Part shown: positions 87-41,702 of the stretch, one piece after another
Numbering within the stretch: position 1 is the first letter of the stretch
Layout: each line of letters opens with the position of its first letter
Virus record (IMG/VR): IMGVR_UViG_3300037605_000001
Coordinates: 1 to 42,489 of that record
Length of the DNA stretch: 42,489 nucleotides
DNA from: a virus
Lineage: Duplodnaviria > Caudoviricetes
Reading direction: 5' to 3' (one strand)
Program-made: the position numbers and the translations under genes
The notes under the pieces: generated by a model
The model's database searches: none
What the model saw: the letters and a program-made list of their open reading frames with translations, nothing else
Told to the model about the DNA's origin: nothing

Positions 87-126
87 TGGTGGGTGATAAG
101 AGATTCGAACTCCTGACATCTTCGAT
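87..126 (-). mobile_element. att core candidate: 3' half of a tRNA (probably tRNA-Val)
   Basis: Minus strand reads ATCGAAGATGTCAGGAGTTCGAATCTCTTATCACCCACCA: 3' anticodon stem, T-arm with GTTCGAAT loop, acceptor strand and CCA. The 5' half is absent. The Val assignment is from recalled similarity to alphaproteobacterial tRNA-Val. Confidence 0.8.
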
Positions 127-237: not shown

Positions 238-286
238 CCACATTCCTGACACACGGCTTCCTTTGGATCAATCCAAGGGAAAAACC

Positions 287-1105
287 ATGAGCGATTTTTG
301 GTGGGCCGATCTGGGTGACGAAACCCTGACGGAAACGGCGTGGGAACGCCAAATGAACATCGCCGGAATAGAGGCTTTCGAGCAAGCCCGATACACCGCT
401 TCCGGCCAGACCAAGAAGGCCAGCGAATCACGCACTGGTCAGAAGGTGCTGCGTAAGTTCCTCGAAAGAGCGGCTGACGCTATCCTTGAAATGCAGAAGA
501 ACCTTCTCGGTATCCATCGGATCGACCGGACCCTGAGGGCAACGGTCCTTCTGGTCCCTGAGGAAGTGGCTTCGATGCTGGTCCTGAGGGCACTCATTGA
601 CCGGACCTATGGGATCGCTGATCAGGACAAGGGGTATAACTACCAAATCCTGAGCAAAGAGATTGCCAAGTCGGTCGAGACTGAACTGAACTTCCGGCAC
701 TGGCTGAACGAGAGCCAGAAGCAGTCTGCCAAGTATGCCAAGGAGAAGGGCCTGAGCAAGGTTCCCAAGTCTCTGGCTGAACGGCTGATCGAAGAACAGG
801 GCGTGAGCCGTGCTTCCTTCTTCCGCTGGAAACAGACCTTCGATGAACTCAACACATACGAGTGGAGCACCCTTGAGCAGCACTACTGCGGGGAGGCTCT
901 GCTTCTGACTGTGATCGAAGCCCTCCCTGAGGCTTTCGAAATCAGCATCGTCACGGAGCGTGGCAAGACCACCAAGCACGTCAGGATGAAGCCTGAGTTC
1001 CGCAAATACTTCGATGACATGGAGGCCAAGATCGCCCGACTTCAGGTCGTCAGGAAACCCATGATCGCCCGACCACGGCGATGGACCAAAGGAGAAACCG
1101 AATGA
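287..1105 (+). CDS. T7-type RNA polymerase, N-terminal domain subunit
   Basis: Segments match the T7 RNAP N-terminal domain: WERQMNIAGIEAF, PEEVASMLVLRAL, EIAKSVETELNF, WSTLEQHYCG, and PMIARPRRWT (T7 PCVVPPKPWT). ATG 287 follows AAGGGA, preferred over TTG 263. Confidence 0.85.
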   Translation: MSDFWWADLGDETLTETAWERQMNIAGIEAFEQARYTASGQTKKASESRTGQKVLRKFLERAADAILEMQKNLLGIHRIDRTLRATVLLVPEEVASMLVLRALIDRTYGIADQDKGYNYQILSKEIAKSVETELNFRHWLNESQKQSAKYAKEKGLSKVPKSLAERLIEEQGVSRASFFRWKQTFDELNTYEWSTLEQHYCGEALLLTVIEALPEAFEISIVTERGKTTKHVRMKPEFRKYFDDMEAKIARLQVVRKPMIARPRRWTKGETE

Positions 1106-1784: not shown

Positions 1785-1831
1785 ACCAGTCCAAAGCAGA
1801 AACGACCCATGAGCAGAACAAGGGAATCGAA

Positions 1832-3613
1832 ATGACTGTCCATTACGAAGGCGGATACTTCCTCTTCAATGACCCCATTGTCAGGGGCTTTGGCGGCAAC
1901 GCACACACGGCCAACGACCTGTCGAACCTGAGCGGTTACACGGTCGAGGCTGTGAACTACATCCAAGACACACCTTGGCAGGTCAACCCCTACATGATGG
2001 AGACGATTGATACGTTCTTCGAAGCTGGGGAAGACCTGACCGTCGAAGGTAAGGCTGGCACTGAAGTCATCCTCAGGATCGCCATGCCTCTCAACCCCCG
2101 GCTGGACCCCAACGAACCCACCAACAACCTCATCTCGAAAGATGACTGGGCGATGATGGACAAGGAGTCCCGCCAAGCGGTCAAGCAGAAGCGGGCCAAG
2201 GTGCTCACTCGGTTCGAGGAAGAACTGGGGGTCTATCGGGCCACTCGTCGCATCTTCGAGACTGCCAAGGAGATGTCTCAGTTCGACCAGTTCTTCTTTC
2301 CCCACAACCTCGACTTCAGGACTCGCATCTACCCGATCCCGACAGACCTGACTCCCCAGTCCTCGGACTTCTCCAAGGGGATGCTGAGGTTCGCCCGCCC
2401 TACCCGTCTGGGCAAGGAAGGGTATTTCTGGCTTGGGGTCATGGTTGCGTCTCACTGGGGCGAGGACAAGCTGTCACCCAAGGACCGCTTCATGTTTGCT
2501 CAGGAGCCTGAGTTCAACATCAAGATGTGTTCGTGGGTCGATGATCCCTTCGAGAACCGGGAGTGGCTTCAGGCTGATAAGCCGTTCCAGTTCCTTGCAG
2601 CCGCTCATGAGTGGGTCTGGGCCAACCGCCTTGAGAACCCCTATGAGTTCATGAGCCGCCAGCCGGGGAACCTCGACGGATCGTGCAACGGTGCCCAACA
2701 CCTGAGCATCATGGCACGGGACTTGGTGGGGGCTACTGCTACCAACTGTCGGGCTGACTGGGCGACTGGGGGAGAACGCTTCGACCTCTACATGGAAGTG
2801 GCTGATCGGGTCTGGCAACAGGTCCAGAGGGATGCAGCCAAGGGTGATCCTGTGGCGCTTGAGTGGGTTCCTAAGATGCAGGAAGCCTCTGATCGCCGGA
2901 AGGTCGTCAAGCGGTCAGTCATGACGGTTCCCTACGGTGTGACCGATCATGGCGTGGCTGACTTCATGATCAAGGACAAGCACGTTGCTGAGGACTCCCA
3001 GAACCAGTGGGACTCTGCCAAATACATGCGTGACCTGATCATGTCGTCCATTGACGAAACCCTGAGCAATGGCCGGAAGCTGCAACTCTGGTTCATGGAG
3101 TGTGCTCGTCGGTGTGCTGAGGAAGGGCTTCCGTTGATCTGGGACACCCCTGCCGGATCGAAGGTCACACAAGCGTATCGGAACCTGATCCAGAAGCGGG
3201 TCCGGTCCTTTGACACTCGGTTCTACATCTATGAGGAACCGAAGCCGGGAGAGGATGAGGACGACTTCTACCTGCGTGTGGGTATGAATGAACGTAAGAT
3301 GGCTACAGCGGCCCCGCCCAATGTGGTCCACTCCTGCGATGCCTCTCACCTTCAGATCACGGTCTGCCGGATGGCTGATGCCGGGATCAAGGACTTCTCA
3401 ATGATCCATGACAGTTTCGGCTGTCCTCTGGCTCATGTGGGTCTGATGCGGAACATCCTGAGACAATCCATCGTGGATATGTATTCGGGGGACTACCTTC
3501 AGAAGTTCAAGAAGTCGGTCGAGGACTACACCGGACTGAAGATGCCTGAACCGCCCTCTCTGGGGGAGTTCGACATCAGCGAGATTCTGGATTCCGAGTT
3601 CTTCTTCGCCTGA
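1832..3613 (+). CDS. T7-type RNA polymerase, catalytic subunit
   Basis: DFRTRIYP (DxxGR variant), motif A LDGSCNGAQH, motif B RKVVKRSVMTVPYG, NVVHSCDA, motif C IHDSFG, C-terminal FFFA. Confidence 0.97.
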   Translation: MTVHYEGGYFLFNDPIVRGFGGNAHTANDLSNLSGYTVEAVNYIQDTPWQVNPYMMETIDTFFEAGEDLTVEGKAGTEVILRIAMPLNPRLDPNEPTNNLISKDDWAMMDKESRQAVKQKRAKVLTRFEEELGVYRATRRIFETAKEMSQFDQFFFPHNLDFRTRIYPIPTDLTPQSSDFSKGMLRFARPTRLGKEGYFWLGVMVASHWGEDKLSPKDRFMFAQEPEFNIKMCSWVDDPFENREWLQADKPFQFLAAAHEWVWANRLENPYEFMSRQPGNLDGSCNGAQHLSIMARDLVGATATNCRADWATGGERFDLYMEVADRVWQQVQRDAAKGDPVALEWVPKMQEASDRRKVVKRSVMTVPYGVTDHGVADFMIKDKHVAEDSQNQWDSAKYMRDLIMSSIDETLSNGRKLQLWFMECARRCAEEGLPLIWDTPAGSKVTQAYRNLIQKRVRSFDTRFYIYEEPKPGEDEDDFYLRVGMNERKMATAAPPNVVHSCDASHLQITVCRMADAGIKDFSMIHDSFGCPLAHVGLMRNILRQSIVDMYSGDYLQKFKKSVEDYTGLKMPEPPSLGEFDISEILDSEFFFA

Positions 3614-3650
3614 GTCTCAATAACGGTCCTCACTAGGACATAGAAACCCG
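3613..3650 (+). promoter_or_regulatory. 38-bp repeat, putative phage RNAP promoter (copy 1)
   Basis: AGTCTCAATAACGGTCCTCACTAGGACATAGAAACCCG is identical to 9790-9827; both copies are intergenic. Confidence 0.7.
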
Positions 3651-3798
3651 ATCCCTTCAGTGGGGTCGGGCCTCCCCTTCCCCTTCAGACGATGCACTGG
3701 GCTGTTCCCTTGGTTCTCCCTCCTTTCTGCTCATGCAGTCTGGTGCATCTTCTGAGCGGGAACGCTCTAACAACGGTCGCCCTCGTGGCGGCTTTTTT
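3640..3798 (+). ncRNA. putative sRNA or structured leader
   Basis: Lies between the promoter-like repeat and a terminator. Short hairpin 3646-3670; long stem 3685-3704/3736-3755 with G-U pairs; 31-nt pyrimidine-rich loop. The 5' end is approximate. Confidence 0.55.
3776..3798 (+). terminator. intrinsic terminator
   Basis: GTCGCC-CTCGT-GGCGGC followed by T6. Confidence 0.7.
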
Positions 3799-3826
3799 AT
3801 CTTGGACTGATCCAAAGGAGAGAGAA

Positions 3827-4051
3827 ATGGAAGCCAAGGAACTGAAACTCGGTGGTCGCTATGTTCGCCGCGATGGAACTGTCACGCCGCCGCTGGAAAC
3901 CAGCCTTCATTGGCGTGGTGGACTGACCGATCCCGAAACAGGTGCGGACTACGATCCGAAGTCCGATGAGGGCCACTTCTACTACGAAGGCGACACTCAC
4001 GAACTCGACCTCGTGGCGGTCTACGTCGAACACGCATCGGAGGCAGCATGA
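3827..4051 (+). CDS. hypothetical protein
   Basis: AAAGGAG RBS before ATG 3827 (MEAKELKLGGRYVRRDG); the longer 3692 start runs through the structured RNA. Confidence 0.75.
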   Translation: MEAKELKLGGRYVRRDGTVTPPLETSLHWRGGLTDPETGADYDPKSDEGHFYYEGDTHELDLVAVYVEHASEAA

Positions 4052-4923: not shown

Positions 4924-5366
4924 TGGAGACACGGTTCACCATTGAGGCTGAACCTGTCCCTGCTTCCCGGCCAAGGGTGACTACGAGAGGGGTTCCCTAT
5001 TACCCCAAGAAGCACACGGCCTACAGCGAGTATCTGAAGCAATCTCTGAAGGAGGTCGGGGTCAATCATGATCCCGGCCCCGTCGAGGTCCGCTTGCTGT
5101 TTGTCATGCCTCCCTACAAGACCTCGGACCACCCTGTCCACCGTGCTGACGTGGACAACCTTGCGAAGCTGCCTCTGGACAGCATGACGAAGATCATGGG
5201 TGACGATGAACACCCCGTGTTCTGGCCCGACGATTGTTTCGTCTCTTCGTTGATGACGTTCAAGCGGTTCGCAAGGGAGGGAGAGCAGCCACATACCAAG
5301 GTTCGCATCAAGAGTATCAAAGGTTCAATCGAAGACCACGTTGACGAGGCATTTGAGAATGGCTGA
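4923..5366 (+). CDS. rusA: RusA-family Holliday junction resolvase
   Basis: PVPASRPR, DVDNLAK...D and WPDD motifs. Confidence 0.85.
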   Translation: METRFTIEAEPVPASRPRVTTRGVPYYPKKHTAYSEYLKQSLKEVGVNHDPGPVEVRLLFVMPPYKTSDHPVHRADVDNLAKLPLDSMTKIMGDDEHPVFWPDDCFVSSLMTFKRFAREGEQPHTKVRIKSIKGSIEDHVDEAFENG

Positions 5367-7726: not shown

Positions 7727-7950
7727 TGGACCAATCCAAAGGACACCTAGGCGATGATCAACTGATCCGCCTGACCGCATTGCAACTGGCAATCGGTGCT
7801 CACGCAAAGGAGAACGGCTGGCCGGATGACATCATCGTTCAGGCCCGTCAGTTCTACCTGTTCTTGGCTCAGAAAGACCCCTGTGTCGATCTGGGTCAGG
7901 ACAAGCACGACAACGTGGTTTCCATGTTGGAGGACTACGGATTTGAGTGA
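7726..7950 (+). CDS. hypothetical protein
   Basis: TAATG coupling to the helicase stop. Confidence 0.65.
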   Translation: MDQSKGHLGDDQLIRLTALQLAIGAHAKENGWPDDIIVQARQFYLFLAQKDPCVDLGQDKHDNVVSMLEDYGFE

Positions 7951-9787
7951 AAGAATCTTCTTCGCTGACTGTGAGGGAGATAACTTTCTGGAAGACATCT
8001 CGACGATGTGGACTATCCAGATCGCTCAAGAGGTCGATGCCCCGGTCGAGGTCTTTGCGGACCAACCGGGATACAAGCCCCTGAAGCAAGGCATGGAACT
8101 GTTGATGGAGTGCGATAAGGTCGTATTCCACAACGGCTTCGGCTTTGACTTCTGGGCGCTGAACAAGGTCGTCGGGGAGCGGTATAACCTGTTCCTCGAC
8201 CGCCACCAGATCATCGACTCCCTCATCATCAGCCGACTGATCGACAGCACGTCCAAGCGCCACTCCCTCGCTGAACTGGGTGAGAACCTAGGGTTCCGCA
8301 AGGGCGACCACCATGACTTCTCTCAGTTCTCTGAAGAGATGGTCAAGTATGGCAAGCAGGATGTGCGTATCCTTCAAGAGGCGTGGAAGCTGCCTTCGCA
8401 GAGACGCAAGGTTTCAAAGGTCCCGTCCTTTGGCAAGTTCTACGACACCTTCAAGCCCGCCTGTGAGACTGAGTTTCAGACCGCCTATGTGATCGAAAAG
8501 CAGTCCCAGCATGGCTTCAGGTTCGACTACGAGTCGGCCCAGATGCTTGAGGCGGAACTGAGGCACGAACAGAAGCAACTCGAAAGGGACCTTCAGAAGA
8601 TTTTCCCCCCGATCACGCATGAGCGTTACTCGGAGAAGACAGGGAAGCGCCTGAAGGACAAGATCGAAGTCTTCAACCCCGGTTCCCGTGACCAGATCGC
8701 TGACCGCTTGATCACCAAATACAAGTGGAAGCCGATTGACCTGACACCCACCAAGAAGCCCAAGATTGACGAGACGATCCTTGACGCCCTGCCCTACCCT
8801 GAGGCCAAGGAGATTGCTCGGTATATGACCTTGGGCAAGAAGCTGGGTCAGGTGGCCGATGGCGACAACGCTTGGCTCAAGATGGCGAAGCCCAAACCTG
8901 ATGGGTCCTTCTACATCCACGGTCGCATCAACACCCTTGGTGCTCGGACACACCGGATGTCTCACTTTGCGCCAAACTTGGCACAGGTGGACTCCGACCC
9001 TCGCATGAGGTCCCTGTTCCTAGCTGACCCTGACCACTTCCTGATCGGTGTGGACGCTGAGGGTCTGGAACTGAGGGAACTCGCCCACTTCCTCTACCCC
9101 TATGACCAAGGCCGCTACGTCGAGATTGTTCACAGCGGCGACAAGTCCAAAGGGACTGACATCCACACGATGAACATGAAGGCGGCTGAGTTGTTCCTCA
9201 GGGACAGCGCCAAGACCATGATCTATGCCCACAACTATGGGTGCTTCGACAAGAAGCTGGGTCAGATCGTCATGGACGATGCCAAGGCCGCTGGACAGCC
9301 CACTCCTGAGGGGTCCCTGAGCGCCATTGGTGCCCGCCTCCGGTCCAAGATCGAGGTTGGCATTGTCGGTCTGGGGGAACTGATTGCCAAGTGCAAGCGC
9401 ACCCACGGCAAGATGAAGGCCCTCCCCGGCCACGATGGACGCTGGATACCTTCAGCCTCCGATCACTCTGCCCTGAACACCCTGCTTCAAGGCAACGGTT
9501 CAATCGTCATGAAGAAGGCTCTGGTCATCTTCGAAGACGAACTTGAGAAGCTGCAACTGTTGGACAAGGTGCTCTACTGCGCCAACGTCCACGACGAGTT
9601 TCAGCTATCGGTTCACCCTGACCTCGTGACCTACCACGGTGACGACGACAAGGGCCGACCGATCTACACAAGCCCAATCGCTGAGTTGGGCCGTGAGAGC
9701 ATCACCAAAGCTGGTGAGGCGCTGGGGGTTCGTTGCCCTCTGGTCGGTTCTGCCGACATCGGACGTAGCTGGGCCGATACACACTAA
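7943..9787 (+). CDS. DNA polymerase, family A (T7 gp5-like)
   Basis: Exonuclease motifs DCE, HNGFGFD, YGKQD; polymerase motifs DAEGLELR, RDSAKTMIY, VHDE. TTG 7943 follows GGAGG. Confidence 0.96.
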   Translation: MSERIFFADCEGDNFLEDISTMWTIQIAQEVDAPVEVFADQPGYKPLKQGMELLMECDKVVFHNGFGFDFWALNKVVGERYNLFLDRHQIIDSLIISRLIDSTSKRHSLAELGENLGFRKGDHHDFSQFSEEMVKYGKQDVRILQEAWKLPSQRRKVSKVPSFGKFYDTFKPACETEFQTAYVIEKQSQHGFRFDYESAQMLEAELRHEQKQLERDLQKIFPPITHERYSEKTGKRLKDKIEVFNPGSRDQIADRLITKYKWKPIDLTPTKKPKIDETILDALPYPEAKEIARYMTLGKKLGQVADGDNAWLKMAKPKPDGSFYIHGRINTLGARTHRMSHFAPNLAQVDSDPRMRSLFLADPDHFLIGVDAEGLELRELAHFLYPYDQGRYVEIVHSGDKSKGTDIHTMNMKAAELFLRDSAKTMIYAHNYGCFDKKLGQIVMDDAKAAGQPTPEGSLSAIGARLRSKIEVGIVGLGELIAKCKRTHGKMKALPGHDGRWIPSASDHSALNTLLQGNGSIVMKKALVIFEDELEKLQLLDKVLYCANVHDEFQLSVHPDLVTYHGDDDKGRPIYTSPIAELGRESITKAGEALGVRCPLVGSADIGRSWADTH

Positions 9788-9789
9788 CC

Positions 9790-9827
9790 AGTCTCAATAA
9801 CGGTCCTCACTAGGACATAGAAACCCG
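9790..9827 (+). promoter_or_regulatory. 38-bp repeat, putative phage RNAP promoter (copy 2)
   Basis: Identical to 3613-3650. Confidence 0.7.
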
Positions 9828-13886: not shown

Positions 13887-15605
13887 ATGAGTTTCAAATC
13901 CAACGTCAACCCGATGTTCCGCTCGAAGTTCAGCGAGGACATCTTCAATCACAAATACGCCCATGCCGCAGACTATGCTGGTGCTGAGACATGGGAGAGG
14001 CTGGCATGGACCTTGGTGCAAGATGTCTGTGGCGACTACATGGCACCGTCAGAGATGGAAGTCCTCTATGAGGCAATCCGTGACCTGAAGTTCATCCCCG
14101 GTGGACGCTACCTGTATTACGCTGGCCGACCGCACAAGTTCTTCAACAACTGCTACCTGCTTCGGGCTGAAGAAGACAGCCGTGAGGACTGGGCCAATGT
14201 CTCTTGGAAAGCCGAGAGCGCCCTGATGACTGGTGGCGGTATCGGTGTGGACTACAGTGTCTACCGAGAGGAAGGTGCTGTCATCAAACGGACTGGTGGG
14301 TTTGCCTCAGGTCCGATCCCCAAGATGCAGATGATCAACGAGATTGGCCGTAGGGTCATGCAAGGGGGTTCCCGCAGATCGGCTATCTATGCCTCTCTGG
14401 ACCGGACGCACCCTGATGTCTTCAAGTTCCTCGTCTCGAAGAACTGGGATGAGATGCCTGTGGGTAACACTGGTCAGACCCTATGGGACATCAAGCAGGA
14501 TGACTTCAACTTCCCTGCCCCGATGGACATGACCAACATCTCGGTCAACTACAAGACGGACTGGCTGAAGGTCAAGGGTGATCCTTGGACGGATGGTGAG
14601 TGGTCTGGCGACCATACCGATCCTGTCTTCGTCAAGAACGTGGAACAGGCCCTTCGGACTGCCGAACCGGGGTTCAGCTTCAACTTCTTCGACAAGGAGA
14701 ATGAGACGCTGAGGAACGCTTGCACTGAGGTCACATCCGAGGACGACTCTGATGTCTGTAACCTTGGGTCCCTGAACATGGGCCGGATCGAAAGCATCTC
14801 TGAGTTCCATCGGATCACCGAACTGGCAACCAAGTTCCTGATCTGTGGCACCCTGAAGGCCGAACTGCCTTATGAGAAGGTCTACCAGACTCGTGAGAAG
14901 AACCGCCGACTGGGCCTTGGCCTCATGGGCGTTCACGAGTGGCTTCTGAAGCGTGGCTATCGTTATGAGGTCACACCTGAACTGCACAACTGGCTTGGGG
15001 TCTACCGTGATGTCTCGAAAAATACTTCTGACAAGTTCGCAGACCAGCTTGGCGTTAGTCGCCCTGTTGCACAGCGGGCAATCGCTCCCACAGGTAGTAT
15101 TGGTATTCTCGCCGGAACAACCACCGGGATCGAACCCCTGTTTGCCGTTGCCTACAAGCGGCGATACCTGAAGGGATCGAATGACTGGCACTATCAGTAT
15201 GTGGTCGATGGAACGGCCCAAGAACTGATCGACCAGTATGGACTGAACCCTGACCAGATCGAATCCGCTGGTGATCTTGCGACCGACTATGAGCGCCGGA
15301 TCAAGTTCCAAGCTGACGTTCAGGACTACGTTGATCAGGCAATCTCGTCCACGATCAACCTCCCCTCGTGGGGGTCTGAACACAACAACCCTGACACGGT
15401 GCCTGAGTTCGCTCGGACACTGGCCCGCTACGCACCCCGCTTGCGTGGCTTCACATGCTATCCAGATGGTGCCCGTGGGGGCCAACCCCTCACCCACGTC
15501 CCCTACTCGGAAGCTGTGACCTACCTTGGTCAGGAGTTCTCTGAGAGCGTCCAGACACATGACATCTGCGACATCTCTGGCAAGGGCGGGAGTTGTGGCG
15601 TCTGA
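13887..15605 (+). CDS. nrdJ: ribonucleotide reductase, probably class II (B12-dependent)
   Basis: PGGR, NNCY, NACTE, CNLGS, IAPTGS, C-terminal Cys pair; no beta-subunit gene in the window. Confidence 0.88.
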   Translation: MSFKSNVNPMFRSKFSEDIFNHKYAHAADYAGAETWERLAWTLVQDVCGDYMAPSEMEVLYEAIRDLKFIPGGRYLYYAGRPHKFFNNCYLLRAEEDSREDWANVSWKAESALMTGGGIGVDYSVYREEGAVIKRTGGFASGPIPKMQMINEIGRRVMQGGSRRSAIYASLDRTHPDVFKFLVSKNWDEMPVGNTGQTLWDIKQDDFNFPAPMDMTNISVNYKTDWLKVKGDPWTDGEWSGDHTDPVFVKNVEQALRTAEPGFSFNFFDKENETLRNACTEVTSEDDSDVCNLGSLNMGRIESISEFHRITELATKFLICGTLKAELPYEKVYQTREKNRRLGLGLMGVHEWLLKRGYRYEVTPELHNWLGVYRDVSKNTSDKFADQLGVSRPVAQRAIAPTGSIGILAGTTTGIEPLFAVAYKRRYLKGSNDWHYQYVVDGTAQELIDQYGLNPDQIESAGDLATDYERRIKFQADVQDYVDQAISSTINLPSWGSEHNNPDTVPEFARTLARYAPRLRGFTCYPDGARGGQPLTHVPYSEAVTYLGQEFSESVQTHDICDISGKGGSCGV

Positions 15606-28183: not shown

Positions 28184-28239
28184 GTTCTCTCCATAGGTGG
28201 TCCCCTCCCTTAGACTGATCCAAGGGAAGGGATGTTGTT

Positions 28240-31200
28240 TTACGACAGTGCAGTCGGGATTTGCTTCGGATCGACCTTCTGGACACCTTGGCGACCCATG
28301 ATGAACTGGATCAGTTCAGGATCACCGAGGGCTTGGATCGGGATTTGGTTGGCCTCCAAGATGCTGAGGAAGATGTTGTAGTCTTCCGCACCAAGTTCCT
28401 GCATCACCTGAACCCAAGTCTCCTGAGTCCTCTGAGCATCCTTGGGGTGAATACCGTAGGAGTCGTGGATCGGGTTGAAGGTGTTCAGAGGCTCTTGCTC
28501 CTGAAGACGCTTGTGAGTCTCACGCAAGGCCCAAGCATCGTTCTGGTGCGTCATGAACGCGGCCAGACCTCGACCTGCCATCTTTGTGTCGGTTCCACGG
28601 ACACCTAGAGGCACCACGTTACCGTCACCGAGGGCAATTTCAGCCTTCTCGAAGATGGGGTTCTGCTTGAAGCTGTATTCCAGCATCATGCCATCCTTGG
28701 TCGGAACCTTGACCGTCTCTCGACCAGCAGCCTTCACAATGTCCGATACCTTCTGAGCGAAGTTCAGGTATTGCCTCATGCCGGGGAACTGGACGTTCAT
28801 CTGCTTGATCAACTCTTGGTTCATCCGAGCATAGAAGTAGTTCTCGTAGGCCGAGCGGACTGCATCAGCCCTGCTACCGAACTTGGTCCCGTTCGAGACG
28901 AACTTTCCGGTCAGACCATCAGCAACTTCGATGACGAACTTGTCACCACTGGGGACGATCCGCTTGCGCTTCATCGGGGGCTTCGAAGGCTCACCATCAG
29001 CGTCAAAGTGCGGGGTCACAAACAGATGCCCATCTTGGGAATCCATCTCAGAGATGATGTTCTCAGGGACCGGGATCAGACCGTTTTCCTCGACACCGAA
29101 GATCGGGACATCCTTGCCAGCAATCTCGGACAGGGCGTCCTTGAAAGCCTTCTTGCGGGAATTGAAAGCAGCAGCGTAGAGATACGTCCCTACAGGCTTC
29201 TTGAAGATTTTCCGCAGCACGGACCCCGGCAGATCAAGGTCAGACAGTTCGGGGATTTCCATTGTGGCGGGTCCCGCAACCTGCATGTAGATGTCACCAC
29301 CTTGACGCATATCAGGATCACCAGAGGCACCCTCAGGAGGGAGCATACCAGTGGACTGAAGAACGTCAGTGTAGCCCATCACCATACCAGCGATCTGATA
29401 GGCGTTGTTCGAGGCGTCCAACTGGACGATGAAGTCTGTCTCGTAGTTCTGAGCCAGATCGGCACGAACCTCAGGGTCCTGAAGCAGTTCCTTGGGTTTC
29501 AGCTTGCTCTTGTCTTTGTGACGTTCCCTTGCCCAGTCCACCATGCTCTTGACTTCATGGGCGGCGTTCAGGGCTTGGAAGAACCCTTCCGAACCTTTGA
29601 CCAGCTTCCCTACGGAAGTCAGGTTGCCACTCTTGTCCTCAAGACGGAGACGACCAAAGGGGTCTTCAGCCAGCTTGATCAGGTCATCGACCATCGTGCC
29701 TTCGAAGATAGCCATACGGCGTTCAGCAGGAGGCTTCTTGTCGAAACCAAGGAGGTTTCCGAGGCCGTGGAACACATAGTTCAATCCAGCTTCACCACCC
29801 AGCTTGTCCTTCTGTGCAGAGCGCATCAGACCCTTCATGATGTCACCAGCCTGAGAGTGTGCCAGCCCGTTACGGCTGTAGACACGCAGGTTGGCACCAG
29901 CCATCCACTCCTGACGGATCAGGGTGTTTCCGGCTTCACGGGTTTGGAACAGGAGTTGGGCCACGGTTCTGACGTTGGAGTCATCACGCTTTCCATCCTT
30001 GTCCTTTGGTCTGAGGATGTCGCCAATCGGTCCCAGCTTCGTCGCGTTCACACCGGACAGACCCTTTTCGATCTGGTCCAGCATCTTAGGATGGATCGAA
30101 TGGTAGGTCTGACGCATGGCGTTCAGGAAGTTGAAGATCGGGCGGAAGGCCGGGGTCACTCGGTCACGGGGGATGTCCTTCAGAGCACGGAAGTCACCAT
30201 CTTCAGTGACGTTGTGTCCATACTCGACATCAGGCCCACTCTGAGGAACCATCTTGCCGACTTGCTTGACTGCCTTGGCGATCTGAAGCCGTTCATAGAA
30301 CTCAGGGTCCAATCCATCCGACTTGGTGGCGTTGGGATTGTGGAACTGAAGGTCCACCACCATCAGGGGCTTGGAGGGATCGGTTGGGTCCTTGATGAAC
30401 TTGCCATCATACTTGAGACGGGCGTTGTTCCGAACCATTCGGCGCTTCAGCATACCCTTGTCTTCCATCGCGTTCAGAGCGTTGTTCACGATCTGGGCGG
30501 CTTGGGGGCCGGGGATGGAGTAGAGTTCCGCATAGGCGTCAGAGAGCATATTCACTGTCACACGGTCGGTCGCCATGTCATAGATCAAGGCTTCGACACG
30601 GTGCTCAGGACTCTTCGTCAGTCCTTGCCTGTGGGCTTCCAGCTTCTCGACATCATTCGAAGCACGGTCGATGGACTCGTAGATGTCTTCGATCCGCTCT
30701 TCGACCATCTGGGCCAGACCAGTCCGACCTTTGGCAGCTTTGGGCTTCTTGACCTCGACAATGCTGGGTTCACCCTTGGTCCGCTTCTTGCGGGCTGGGG
30801 TTTCAGCCTTGCGAACTTCAGTGGCCGGGGATTCCGGTTCAGGCCCTTTGGGGTCCTTTGGATTTGATCCAACAGAGACACCACCTTCGCCATCGTCACG
30901 GGGCTTACGCAGCTTGCGAAGCGCCCTTTCTGCCGTTGTCTCAGCAGGACGGTCGGCAGCGGGCCTTTGATTGTCATTGGCGGCTTTCCGAGTCCGCACC
31001 TTTCGGGGCTTCTTGGCTTCCTTCAGCTTCTCATCGAAGGCTTTCTCTTTTTCGGCCTGAACCGGATCGGCTTCACGCTCAATGGCGTAATCGTTGCCCG
31101 CCGCAGCGAGGGGGATGAACTTCGTGCGCCAAGCCTCCACAACAGCCCTCTGCCCTCTCTTCGGGAAGATCAGAGGCAGCATCTCATCTACCAACTTGAA

Positions 31201-33411
31201 GCGGTCGGCACGAGTCATTGCGGGGCTATTGATGGACTCAGCGAGGTCCATGATCATCTGAAGCTGGGTAGAGTCCAGACTGGGGGTTGCGGCTTCGATG
31301 TCAGTCAGAAGGTTCTTGTATCGGCGGTCGCCTTCGATTGCTCTCTGCTTCCGGCGACTTGAGGTCAGCCCTTTGTCAGCAGCTTGGAATTTCTTGAGCA
31401 CCTGATCAGGTTCGGGACCAATCTTCAGCTTACCCTTCCGGTCGAACTGAGGCTGATACTCAGGATTGATCCGTTGACGGACAGCCTCTTGCAGAGCGAT
31501 GATGTCGTTCTTCTTCATCGTGCGGGAGAACCCACCAATGTCTTCAGCATACATCTGAGCAGCACCCTGAGGGGCCAGACCTTCACGCTCAAGCTGTTCC
31601 AGAGCATCTACAACCTCATCACCAGCCTTGCCAATGCGGGCTTCCCAGAGACGGTCCCCTTGCAGCATCGGGTCATCGTTCTGAGGAACCTTACCCGTCT
31701 CGAAGATGGAGGATCGGTTCGAGGCTTCCAGACGGTAGCGACGAGCGAGTTCTTCAGGAGAGACTTGAGTGCTTCCTTGGGATTGGGTCTTTGGTTGGCC
31801 GGGAGACTTCTGACCTCTGGCCGCAGCAGCACCTTGGGCAGTCTGAAGTTTCAGGTTGGCCTTGGCTACCTGATCAGCCAGCTTCAGCTTGGCGAGGGTA
31901 TCACGAGAGGTTTCCCCTTGGATCGGTCCAACGGACTTCTGTTGAGCCTTGGCCGAGTCCACGAAACGCTTCACGCGGGAACGGTTGTTGGTCAGTCTGT
32001 CGATCTGACGTGCAACACGGTTGACAGCGATCAGGGTCCCAGCGGTCCCGATGGAACCAGAGGCGGCAACAGCGATACCTCCGAGAGAGGTAGTGCTGCG
32101 GGGATCGGTTATGTCAAAGCGGCTGGTCTTGGCCGAGAGGCCCCCCATGTCACCTTTGTCACCCTTGGTGAACCTCTGGATCGTGTTGATCTGGTTCGAG
32201 AGAGACTTGAGCCGTTCAACGTCAGCATCAGAATATCCAGACGACTTGAGGGCTTCATAAGCCATCTTCACGTCTTGCTGGAAACTCTCAGGCGACGAGG
32301 AAGACTGCGTTTGGGTTGTCTTCACCAGAGCGTTCAGAGCGACCTCAGCATCTCGACTGCCTTGGTATTTTGCCAGCTTGCGGAGGTCGCTTGCGATCAC
32401 CCCTACTTCAGCACGAATACCACGAAGGGCAGCGTTGGCAGCAGCTTTGGCCGAGCCTGTGTCTGTGTCATTCACATTGGCGAGGACAGCCATGTCACCA
32501 TCAGCGGCCTTCAGGAGGCGGTCGGCAGCACGGATGTCGTCTTCGGACATCTCACCACGGTCAATGCGGCTGAAGAAGTCCCCAGCGTTCTCTGGGGTCA
32601 TGGCGTCAGTGGCACGGATAGCCCCATCAACGGTGACAGCAGAGCCAGCACCGAGCAAACCTTCACCGACAACCATCTTGGGATCGACTTGCCAGCCTTC
32701 TTCAGTTCCGATGGAGCCACCAGTCTGTTGGATAACGGACTGACCACTTTCGGTCACGCCTTCAACGACAGCCCGACGACCGATACCGGAGACACCGGGA
32801 GTCAGGGCGTTAAGGGCACCAGAGGCGGCGGCAGTTGCGGCACCAGCGGCAATGTCACCACCAGTGACCTCAGTGCGGCCATCGTTCTCAGCCCGTTCTT
32901 TGGCGGTCGGTCCAAGGACCTGAAGCACTTCAGGGGCAGCGGCACCTACGAGGCCACCGAGGACGCCACCAACGGCGGCACCTTTGGGACCAAGGAACCC
33001 ACCAGCTTTGGCACCGATTTTGGCACCAGCCCAGCCAGAGGCTAGAGTTGCCCCGAACTGGGGCGCTTGTTCAGCTACAGCACCGGGAGCGGCGTTCAGG
33101 TCGAAGCCTTCTTCTCCCGGTTTCAGGAATTTCTCAGTATAGGTTTTGTAACCCTCAGGGCGGTCAGTCAGCCCTCGGAGCCAGCCCTCAGCCCCTTCGA
33201 AGCCAAGAACCTCAGCCGTATCAGCCACAGATTCAAGCGGACCATCGACAGCGGCCTCAGCCTTATCCCAGAAGGAGGGTTCTTTTTGTGATTGCTGGGC
33301 CGAGGACTGGAGGCGGCGGTATTCCGCCCCCAGCTTACGGACCATCTCTTCATTACCCTCTTGGTGGGCGATCTTGATCCCAGCCTCAAGGCGTTTCAGT
33401 TGGTCACTCAT
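28240..33411 (-). CDS. large internal virion protein with C-terminal T7-type RNA polymerase domain
   Basis: Hydrophobic Gly/Ala N-terminus. C-terminal motifs in order: LRVYS...QAGDIMKGL, GFDKKPPAER, QLDASNNAYQ, DIYMQVA, RKIFKKPVGTYLY, HQNDA, IHDSYG. Confidence 0.9.
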   Translation of the reverse strand: MSDQLKRLEAGIKIAHQEGNEEMVRKLGAEYRRLQSSAQQSQKEPSFWDKAEAAVDGPLESVADTAEVLGFEGAEGWLRGLTDRPEGYKTYTEKFLKPGEEGFDLNAAPGAVAEQAPQFGATLASGWAGAKIGAKAGGFLGPKGAAVGGVLGGLVGAAAPEVLQVLGPTAKERAENDGRTEVTGGDIAAGAATAAASGALNALTPGVSGIGRRAVVEGVTESGQSVIQQTGGSIGTEEGWQVDPKMVVGEGLLGAGSAVTVDGAIRATDAMTPENAGDFFSRIDRGEMSEDDIRAADRLLKAADGDMAVLANVNDTDTGSAKAAANAALRGIRAEVGVIASDLRKLAKYQGSRDAEVALNALVKTTQTQSSSSPESFQQDVKMAYEALKSSGYSDADVERLKSLSNQINTIQRFTKGDKGDMGGLSAKTSRFDITDPRSTTSLGGIAVAASGSIGTAGTLIAVNRVARQIDRLTNNRSRVKRFVDSAKAQQKSVGPIQGETSRDTLAKLKLADQVAKANLKLQTAQGAAAARGQKSPGQPKTQSQGSTQVSPEELARRYRLEASNRSSIFETGKVPQNDDPMLQGDRLWEARIGKAGDEVVDALEQLEREGLAPQGAAQMYAEDIGGFSRTMKKNDIIALQEAVRQRINPEYQPQFDRKGKLKIGPEPDQVLKKFQAADKGLTSSRRKQRAIEGDRRYKNLLTDIEAATPSLDSTQLQMIMDLAESINSPAMTRADRFKLVDEMLPLIFPKRGQRAVVEAWRTKFIPLAAAGNDYAIEREADPVQAEKEKAFDEKLKEAKKPRKVRTRKAANDNQRPAADRPAETTAERALRKLRKPRDDGEGGVSVGSNPKDPKGPEPESPATEVRKAETPARKKRTKGEPSIVEVKKPKAAKGRTGLAQMVEERIEDIYESIDRASNDVEKLEAHRQGLTKSPEHRVEALIYDMATDRVTVNMLSDAYAELYSIPGPQAAQIVNNALNAMEDKGMLKRRMVRNNARLKYDGKFIKDPTDPSKPLMVVDLQFHNPNATKSDGLDPEFYERLQIAKAVKQVGKMVPQSGPDVEYGHNVTEDGDFRALKDIPRDRVTPAFRPIFNFLNAMRQTYHSIHPKMLDQIEKGLSGVNATKLGPIGDILRPKDKDGKRDDSNVRTVAQLLFQTREAGNTLIRQEWMAGANLRVYSRNGLAHSQAGDIMKGLMRSAQKDKLGGEAGLNYVFHGLGNLLGFDKKPPAERRMAIFEGTMVDDLIKLAEDPFGRLRLEDKSGNLTSVGKLVKGSEGFFQALNAAHEVKSMVDWARERHKDKSKLKPKELLQDPEVRADLAQNYETDFIVQLDASNNAYQIAGMVMGYTDVLQSTGMLPPEGASGDPDMRQGGDIYMQVAGPATMEIPELSDLDLPGSVLRKIFKKPVGTYLYAAAFNSRKKAFKDALSEIAGKDVPIFGVEENGLIPVPENIISEMDSQDGHLFVTPHFDADGEPSKPPMKRKRIVPSGDKFVIEVADGLTGKFVSNGTKFGSRADAVRSAYENYFYARMNQELIKQMNVQFPGMRQYLNFAQKVSDIVKAAGRETVKVPTKDGMMLEYSFKQNPIFEKAEIALGDGNVVPLGVRGTDTKMAGRGLAAFMTHQNDAWALRETHKRLQEQEPLNTFNPIHDSYGIHPKDAQRTQETWVQVMQELGAEDYNIFLSILEANQIPIQALGDPELIQFIMGRQGVQKVDPKQIPTALS

Positions 33412-41488: not shown

Positions 41489-41523
41489 CTGCCTCTATAA
41501 ATGAGGCCGCTTATTGAGACTAT
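41489..41523. promoter_or_regulatory. 35-bp promoter-like repeat, class 2, copy 2
   Basis: CTGCCTCTATAAATGAGGCCGCTTATTGAGACTAT. Confidence 0.6.
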
Positions 41524-41531
41524 TCTAAGCC

Positions 41532-41659
41532 TCACCCTAGATCACCCTAGATCACCCCTGACCCTGCCCCTTTATGGCTATCTGCTATAGGGAAACCGCG
41601 AGGACATGAGCAAGGAACCTAAGCCTAACCTAAGATCACCCAAGATCACCCAAGATCAC
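41532..41659. repeat. two arrays of 10-bp tandem repeats
   Basis: TCACCCTAGA x2 + TCACCC (41532-41557); AAGATCACCC x2 + AAGATCAC (41632-41659). Confidence 0.85.
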
Positions 41660-41702
41660 TGAGGGCATGGGGGGGGTATAGTTTAGCCTGAGCCTTCAGT
41701 CT

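Follow-up and report, generated by a model that had tools for sequence, protein, structure and literature searches.

The window, that is, the whole stretch of DNA that was analysed, is a single virus record of 42,489 nt (IMGVR_UViG_3300037605_000001) with a completeness of 93%, in which the plus strand carries T7-like replication genes and the minus strand carries structural genes. Near its left end, two plus-strand genes encode the subunits of a split RNA polymerase: an N subunit of 272 amino acids (287-1105), which matches positions 7-247 of phrog_414, and a catalytic C subunit of 593 amino acids (1832-3613), which matches positions 278-816. Small ORFs are located between the two genes, and the stop codon of a putative 8-codon leader ORF (1809-1835, plus strand), which has a poor SD, overlaps the start of the C gene. 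N-subunit proteins of 249-280 amino acids number 33, the window's own included, and the C subunit has about 70 relatives with identities of 46-88%. No close relative was found among isolated phages and plasmids, the best match being about 32% for the C subunit. In a closer strain, the sequence over 1688-1830 differs from that of the window.

The read depth is at least 46 over bases 1-126, compared to 9 over the phage, a contig from the same run carries other letters upstream of position 87, and two Paracoccaceae genomes carry a match to bases 84-129 in the 3′ portion of tRNA-Val(CAC). Therefore, the start of the window is a prophage end, with host DNA at bases 1-86 and an attachment core at 87-126 (minus strand), which corresponds to the 3′ portion of a gene resembling tRNA-Val(CAC). 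The prophage, that of an uncultured temperate phage, is nearly complete; the window stops before the HTH/integrase module, the repressor-integrase end (~3 kb) being absent. Among the relatives, L097 and L098 are integrated in Paracoccaceae genomes, and L017 (also G001) is a complete virus record whose polymerase is 61% identical to that of the window; the polymerase tree did not resolve whether these two are sisters. An HTH gene and an integrase gene lie ahead of the attachment site in all three, and an XRE-type HTH protein is encoded beside the integrase in G001, G002, and G003, that of G003 scoring slightly below the Pfam cut-off. The attachment site sits between the integrase gene and the N gene (8950 in L097, 9145 in L098, 287 in the window, and 5142 in L017), and integration therefore splits the polymerase genes from the early region. 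The integration sites themselves vary, being tRNA-Val for the window, tRNA-Thr for G002, and a gyrA-adjacent position without a tRNA for G003.

The unit of interest lies directly downstream of the C gene and ahead of the first terminator-like site on the plus strand. The first-pass annotation had placed it between a putative phage promoter and a terminator. A predicted T7-like promoter occupies 3613-3638 (plus strand) with a start at ~3636, and forms a portion of a 38-nt element that is repeated at 9790-9827. The promoter-like element occurs in five copies in the window and in none of 100 shuffles; two copies are on the plus strand, after the C gene and after the DNA polymerase gene, and three are on the minus strand in the early region, facing the late genes. 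The relatives have lineage-specific motifs with a G-rich start at the same place as the 3613 element, and most of them show a terminator-like hairpin between the motif and the next gene. Elements of the 3613 type would act as promoters of the split polymerase, firing rightwards. Alternatively, since the element holds a short hairpin, it may be a promoter of the virion polymerase, firing leftwards. No sigma-70-like promoter was found ahead of the unit. A scan with the promoter pattern returned five loci, of which the three checked (L012, L014, and L016) are without a match to window proteins. Copies of the promoter motif are also seen directly upstream of the integrase gene in G001 (L186, ~15192-15230) and in L191 (~5250-5298), and a copy likewise precedes the integrase gene in G002, in which arrangement integration would depend on the phage polymerase.

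The right boundary is an intrinsic-terminator-like hairpin with a U run (3775-3798, plus strand). The terminator scan finds as many sites in shuffled sequences, and this site is backed by its conserved place in relatives. No terminator-like site was found on the plus strand between the polymerase genes and 3775. The predicted small RNA (3636-3798, plus strand) would be ~163 nt in length, and any polymerase-operon mRNA ending at 3798 would have the same hairpin at its 3′ end. The predicted fold of the 163-nt RNA consists of a 5′ hairpin of 9 bp with a 6-nt loop (3647-3670), which has a counterpart in L017, a long hairpin with an open loop (3678-3762), and the terminator. A sequence recheck confirmed all coordinates given earlier for the stem, the loop, and the matches; the stem described as 20 bp (3685-3704/3736-3755) comprises 16 Watson-Crick pairs, three G-U pairs, and one C-U mismatch. 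The extended stem has a folding energy of −38.8 kcal/mol (z −5.3), and 0 of 200 shuffles fold as well. With such a helix, the long hairpin is a possible RNase III substrate. Most of the loop (3705-3735) stays unpaired in the predicted RNA. Reading the minus strand instead was rejected; its fold is poorer relative to shuffles (z −4.6 and −2.9, compared to −5.3 and −4.3), and, barring leftward firing of the 3613 element, it has no promoter or terminator in this orientation. Rfam showed no gathering-level match in the window and, locally, only sub-threshold miRNA-like matches, and ARAGORN found no tRNA in the window or in L017.

The loop could be divided into a 5′ arm (3705-3713), which is an anti-SD of N and C, a generic anti-SD (3718-3724), and a 3′ arm (3725-3735), which is complementary to the start codons of N and the leader ORF. 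Its complementarity was assessed by exact two-part matching over 57 gene starts, called by script and some by hand, with dinucleotide shuffles as controls. The top two sites are the starts of C and N, the next best having 13 bases. At the C start (1808-1826, plus strand, covering the leader-ORF start and the SD of C), the first 8 and the last 11 bases of the loop are, as originally described, exact reverse complements of 1819-1826 and 1808-1818, respectively. None of 2000 shuffles reached this total of 19 bases, and 1 of 500 did when the best of the 57 starts was taken; the 11-base arm covers the ATG of the leader ORF. At the N start (273-292, plus strand), 9 and 7 exact bases add up to 16 (3 of 2000 shuffles; 28 of 500 anywhere). 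The N match spans both loop ends, 3705-3713 lying on the SD (273-281), a match already pointed out in the earlier annotation, and 3729-3735, a pairing which that annotation did not list, on the start codon (286-292). No further start in the window carries the tags CAAGGGAA and CATGAGC. A third match had been proposed between loop positions 3714-3726 and the SD of the next gene (SD 3814-3826, gene 3827-4051, plus strand); 12 of 13 positions indeed match, but the exact score of 12 is not above shuffles (median best 13), and the match is not conserved in L017.

Duplex energy gives a different picture. The C start ranks first of 58 and is equalled by 0 of 1000 shuffles at that start, and the N start ranks only 16th. 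The energy of the C match is reached at some start by 126 of 300 shuffled loops, so that plain duplex energy does not by itself show specificity and was discarded as a test of it. C/U-rich loops pair generically with purine-rich starts. The shuffled controls suggested at the outset are thus exceeded by the exact two-part matches to C and N, but not by energy alone. When accessibility is taken into account over the 57 starts, N and C occupy ranks 1-3, the C site being counted twice, and the best single helices after opening costs are −12.2 kcal/mol for C/leader and −9.8 kcal/mol for N. The GGAGAACC partner of the 3′ half of the conserved loop core is present at 0 of the 57 window starts. Collectively, the matches of the loop to the polymerase starts are real and non-random.

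The geometry of pairing differs between the two targets. When bound to the C target, the arms would abut head to tail, and a full 19-bp duplex would therefore hold the stem ends ~50 Å apart; on this geometric argument, the full duplex cannot form with the stem closed. In cofolding, C pairing must open the stem for a gain of −5.7 kcal/mol, and a freed loop would net −16.2 kcal/mol. On the N target the order of the arms is reversed, which is compatible with a closed stem. An 11-bp hairpin of its own sequesters the N SD at an opening cost of 10-12 kcal/mol, so that docking has to begin with the start-codon arm; pairing of the 5′ arm by itself nets about 0, and the cofolding gain is only −0.6 kcal/mol. 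It could be deduced from these models that either single-arm pairing would suffice or the stem would be cut.

The stretch after the C gene is visible in 11 relative loci (L017-L020 and L097-L103). Allowing for up to two mismatches, the loop core is found in only one of them, L017, and the ten loci without the core include the two integrated relatives, L097 and L098. In L017, a hairpin at the same place aligns without internal gaps, and 23 of 23 predicted pairs are kept, 9 of them by double-sided change; this stem covariation only leans in favour of the structure because there are two sequences and the structure was derived from both. The L017 loop is similar in length and contains a 14-base core identical to that of the window (3706-3719, plus strand), offset by ~10 bases. 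A match of this length is reached by 1 of 1000 shuffle pairs, and the eight other loci compared share 5-9 bases. A three-way MAFFT alignment over the entire intergenic regions yielded no information. When viral contigs were scanned with DNA patterns for the loop core or the terminator region, the only hits were the L017 contig, an identical copy of it (0 differences over 5167 nt), L181, and L199; the last two were dropped as chance hits because they are unrelated and without any match to window proteins. The L017 RNA would be ~300 nt (7772-8075) with additional hairpins, and a tRNA T-arm-like loop follows its conserved stem, without a tRNA or Rfam call.

The accessible targets of the L017 loop in its own genome, G001, are an early gene of no assigned function (−14.1 kcal/mol), N (−12.3), and a second early gene (−10.8), the N start ranking second of 50 and being flanked by the two early genes in the accessibility-aware ranking. 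A late gene before the terminase comes top by duplex energy, but it was rejected since a hairpin closes off the site (20 kcal/mol; net +1.0). The longest match of the L017 loop to the N start is 9 nt, which 14 of 1000 shuffles reach; by the two-part exact measure the match is ordinary (141 of 2000 shuffles, and 149 of 200 for the whole non-coding stretch). The window loop also matches the L017 N start over 11 contiguous bases. Against the C start of its own phage, the L017 loop shows no match (duplex-energy rank 47 of 50). Because the L017 loop matches N and two early genes without C, N rather than C is the shared target, and the C match is, as judged from the sequences at hand, lineage-specific. 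Most likely, the loop was ancestrally directed at N and some early genes, the situation in L017, and the lineage of the window acquired pairing with C later.

The base beside the core covaries with its target, being U-A in the window and C-G in L017. Furthermore, the SD variant CCAAGGGA occurs at 1 of the 57 starts in the window and at 1 of the 50 in G001, N both times, and it is missing from the N start in 4 of 4 loop-less lineages in which both regions are visible (L018/L020, L097, L098, and L103; L105, without downstream sequence, was excluded). Covariation of loop and target, which had been suggested as a check, thus amounts to one base and a contrast of 2 versus 4 lineages (1 in 15, by hand), because the loop exists in two lineages only, and the C match is absent from L017. 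CCAAGGGA also completes a genome-wide palindrome and once follows it before an early ORF of the loop-less G002. In 15 tests on loop-less relatives, no strong match of the non-coding stretch to their own N or C starts was found, the lowest values being 7 of 200 shuffles for L098 and 8 of 200 for L103, both against C.

These data are consistent with an antisense RNA, made by the polymerase or derived from the 3′ end of its operon, that would exert negative feedback on translation of the polymerase and early genes; we regard this reading, drawn from sequence, as moderately probable. The split polymerase would start at ~3636, and some transcripts would end at 3798 to give the 163-nt RNA. The accessible 3′ arm of the loop would dock on the N start codon (8 bp, one G-U) and on the leader-ORF start (11 bp), after which the 5′ arm would cover the SD of C or invade the SD hairpin of N. 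Increased polymerase activity would raise the level of the RNA and lower new polymerase synthesis, and falling polymerase synthesis would bring the early phase to a close and limit the two subunits jointly. The feedback first proposed for the locus is thereby retained in outline, given the match statistics and one relative with the hairpin and the core, but not with C as the main target, since L017 is without a C match. The promoter-like element upstream argues for a primary transcript, and a phage promoter ahead of the RNA would mean that the activity of the product, not only the transcript, drives the feedback. A wider reading can be offered only tentatively: the small RNA of the split polymerase would silence both of its own subunits through a loop that can be re-aimed and, in combination with an integrase promoter driven by the polymerase, may set the timing of the choice between lysis and lysogeny in a family with two polymerases.

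Part of the layout has a precedent in T7, where phi1.1A lies 26 nt after the polymerase stop and a hairpin comes next, the RNase III signal R1.1. In the window, too, a promoter ~25 nt past the polymerase stop is followed by a hairpin, and, like the T7 RNase III signal, a helix of more than 20 pairs stands in the leader behind a phage promoter; unlike in the window, the T7 hairpin has a 4-nt loop (by folding), and the terminator TE is 1.7 kb further on. The long hairpin could accordingly be a common type of stem that serves processing or stability where the middle transcript begins, and its loop would match gene starts incidentally, through C/U-rich composition or as the remnant of a ribosome-binding region copied long ago. 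A comparable stem occurs in L100, where the loop has 4 nt; in L101 and L103 the stems are long and the loops short; and more than 20 pairs are long enough for RNase III, for which the accessible part of one report gives a minimal substrate of 34 nt (PMC1540722). We consider this explanation rather unlikely, because the 14-nt core and the length of the loop persist despite changes at 9 stem pairs, and because both polymerase genes top the ranking; cleavage and antisense action may, moreover, coexist. Still less probable is that the core serves another partner, be it a host mRNA, an RNA chaperone or other protein, or early genes from the 3 kb that the window lacks, the polymerase matches being secondary. 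The partnerless 3′ half of the core, the incompleteness of the window at its repressor-integrase end, and the best G001 target, an early gene without assigned function, would all fit such a partner, which we nevertheless hold to be very unlikely: the core (up to one mismatch, both strands) is absent from two Paracoccaceae genomes, which are not the known hosts, and its 5′ half is accounted for by N in both phages.

The first-pass annotation had offered a lysogeny-maintenance RNA as the other option. In this scheme, leaky host transcription through the polymerase operon would free the 3′ hairpin, which would silence N and C, either those of the prophage itself or those of a superinfecting phage. 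The polymerase genes of the integrated window do lie next to the host junction, transcription would meet no terminator-like site on the plus strand before 3775, and the 11-base match of the window loop to the L017 N start would suit action on a related phage. The idea nevertheless came out weak, and we judge it quite unlikely; a lysogeny role is unlikely to be primary because the family has a repressor-like gene, the XRE-type HTH gene of G001, G002, and G003, beside the integrase, and the core-less state of two integrated relatives and the missing sigma-70-like promoter ahead of the unit also speak against it. Least probable of all is action in cis on read-through transcripts, in which a pseudoknot of the loop with the next-gene SD (3814-3826) would damp translation. 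The 12/13 match lies 90 nt downstream and nets −11.2 kcal/mol after opening costs, but it does not exceed the shuffle level, the next gene of L017 is outside the top 10 (energy) and the top 8 (accessibility) for its own loop, and the N and C matches would be left unexplained.

Regulatory RNAs with comparable features are known. The c4 RNA of P1/P7 is a phage structured RNA whose loop segments pair near ribosome-binding sites and block translation, according to the accessible part of the source (PMC12197685). The window RNA resembles it, by prediction only, in having complementary loop segments directed at ribosome-binding regions; unlike c4, which targets an antirepressor operon and gives immunity, it is aimed at the phage's own polymerase subunits, and a single loop holds all segments. 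The c4 family in Rfam gave no match up to an E value of 10 in the window (3600-3830) or in L017 (7700-8120). No antirepressor was found among 50 proteins scanned in the incomplete window, and the best targets are polymerase subunits and early genes. OppZ and CarZ of Vibrio cholerae are operon-3′-end RNAs that inhibit translation of their own operons, and a role in subunit balance has been proposed in the part of the account available (PMC7398697). The hairpin RNA is likewise encoded at the 3′ end of the operon to be regulated; the host RNAs are, as far as that account goes, cut out by RNase E, whereas a phage promoter precedes the RNA here. Thus, the hairpin RNA would work like P1 c4 and OppZ/CarZ, is not a member of the c4 family, and is new in its target and circuit.

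Shut-off or restraint of T7-like phage polymerases has so far been ascribed to proteins, and T7 itself limits its polymerase through a protein, lysozyme. In the temperate T7-like phage LUZ100, an integrase and a regulator are encoded upstream of the polymerase, polymerase expression has been proposed as the switch, and a MarR-like protein has been proposed to act on transcription, all within the accessible portion of the paper (PMC10134795), in which the term 'sRNA' occurs 0 times. The present family shares the position of the integrase and regulator genes with LUZ100; as far as that portion describes, it differs from the one-chain polymerase and MarR-like protein of LUZ100 in having a split polymerase, a second, virion polymerase-like protein, and an XRE-type regulator. 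A search of the open-access literature found no case of a phage RNA repressing its own polymerase and no description of a two-polymerase Paracoccaceae phage family. If the reading is true, the locus would be a compact negative-feedback module in which a polymerase-made RNA caps the polymerase's own translation, and a self-limiting expression part could be built from a polymerase of two genes, a single promoter, and the 163-nt RNA.

Several other observations concern the phage family. The window, G001, G002, and G003 represent temperate podophages of Paracoccaceae of ~42-46 kb with two polymerases, a family that is apparently undescribed. A virion protein of 1723 amino acids (28240-33411, minus strand) keeps polymerase motifs A and C and matches Pfam RNA_pol; no match to it was found among isolated phages. 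The capsid matches are LUZ24/phiEco32-like, and the combination of a split polymerase and a virion polymerase corresponds to the N4-like two-polymerase plan. The palindrome TT[AG]GA-N3-5-TCCAA is found family-wide (window and G001-G004) at ~23 sites per genome, mostly directly before a ribosome-binding site on either strand; the window sites are at 263, 1781, 3802, 6201, 9835, and ~18 more. These palindromes may serve as stoperator-like operators for the conserved XRE protein, or else as hairpin signals; an operator with such a variable spacer would be odd. Loop positions 3705-3713 are identical to the 5′ arm of such a palindrome at 28215-28223 (minus strand), upstream of the gene preceding the terminase, and the same holds in G001, so that the loop 5′ arm and the pre-terminase palindrome arm change together across both phages; the palindrome site is predicted to be inaccessible. 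Short tandem repeats (TAGATCACC-like) lie at 41523-41700, between two promoter-like elements in a non-coding stretch that may be an origin or an end of the genome. In L019 (1527-1772) and L020 (3201-3447), ~245 nt break up the C gene at residue 368, a possible intron or insertion; the gene is intact in L018. Finally, another lineage has a different structured element at the place of the hairpin (L018, 3450-3650; L019, 3360-3560); a long-range stem of 15 bp closes this element, and the two loci differ in it by a compensatory change.
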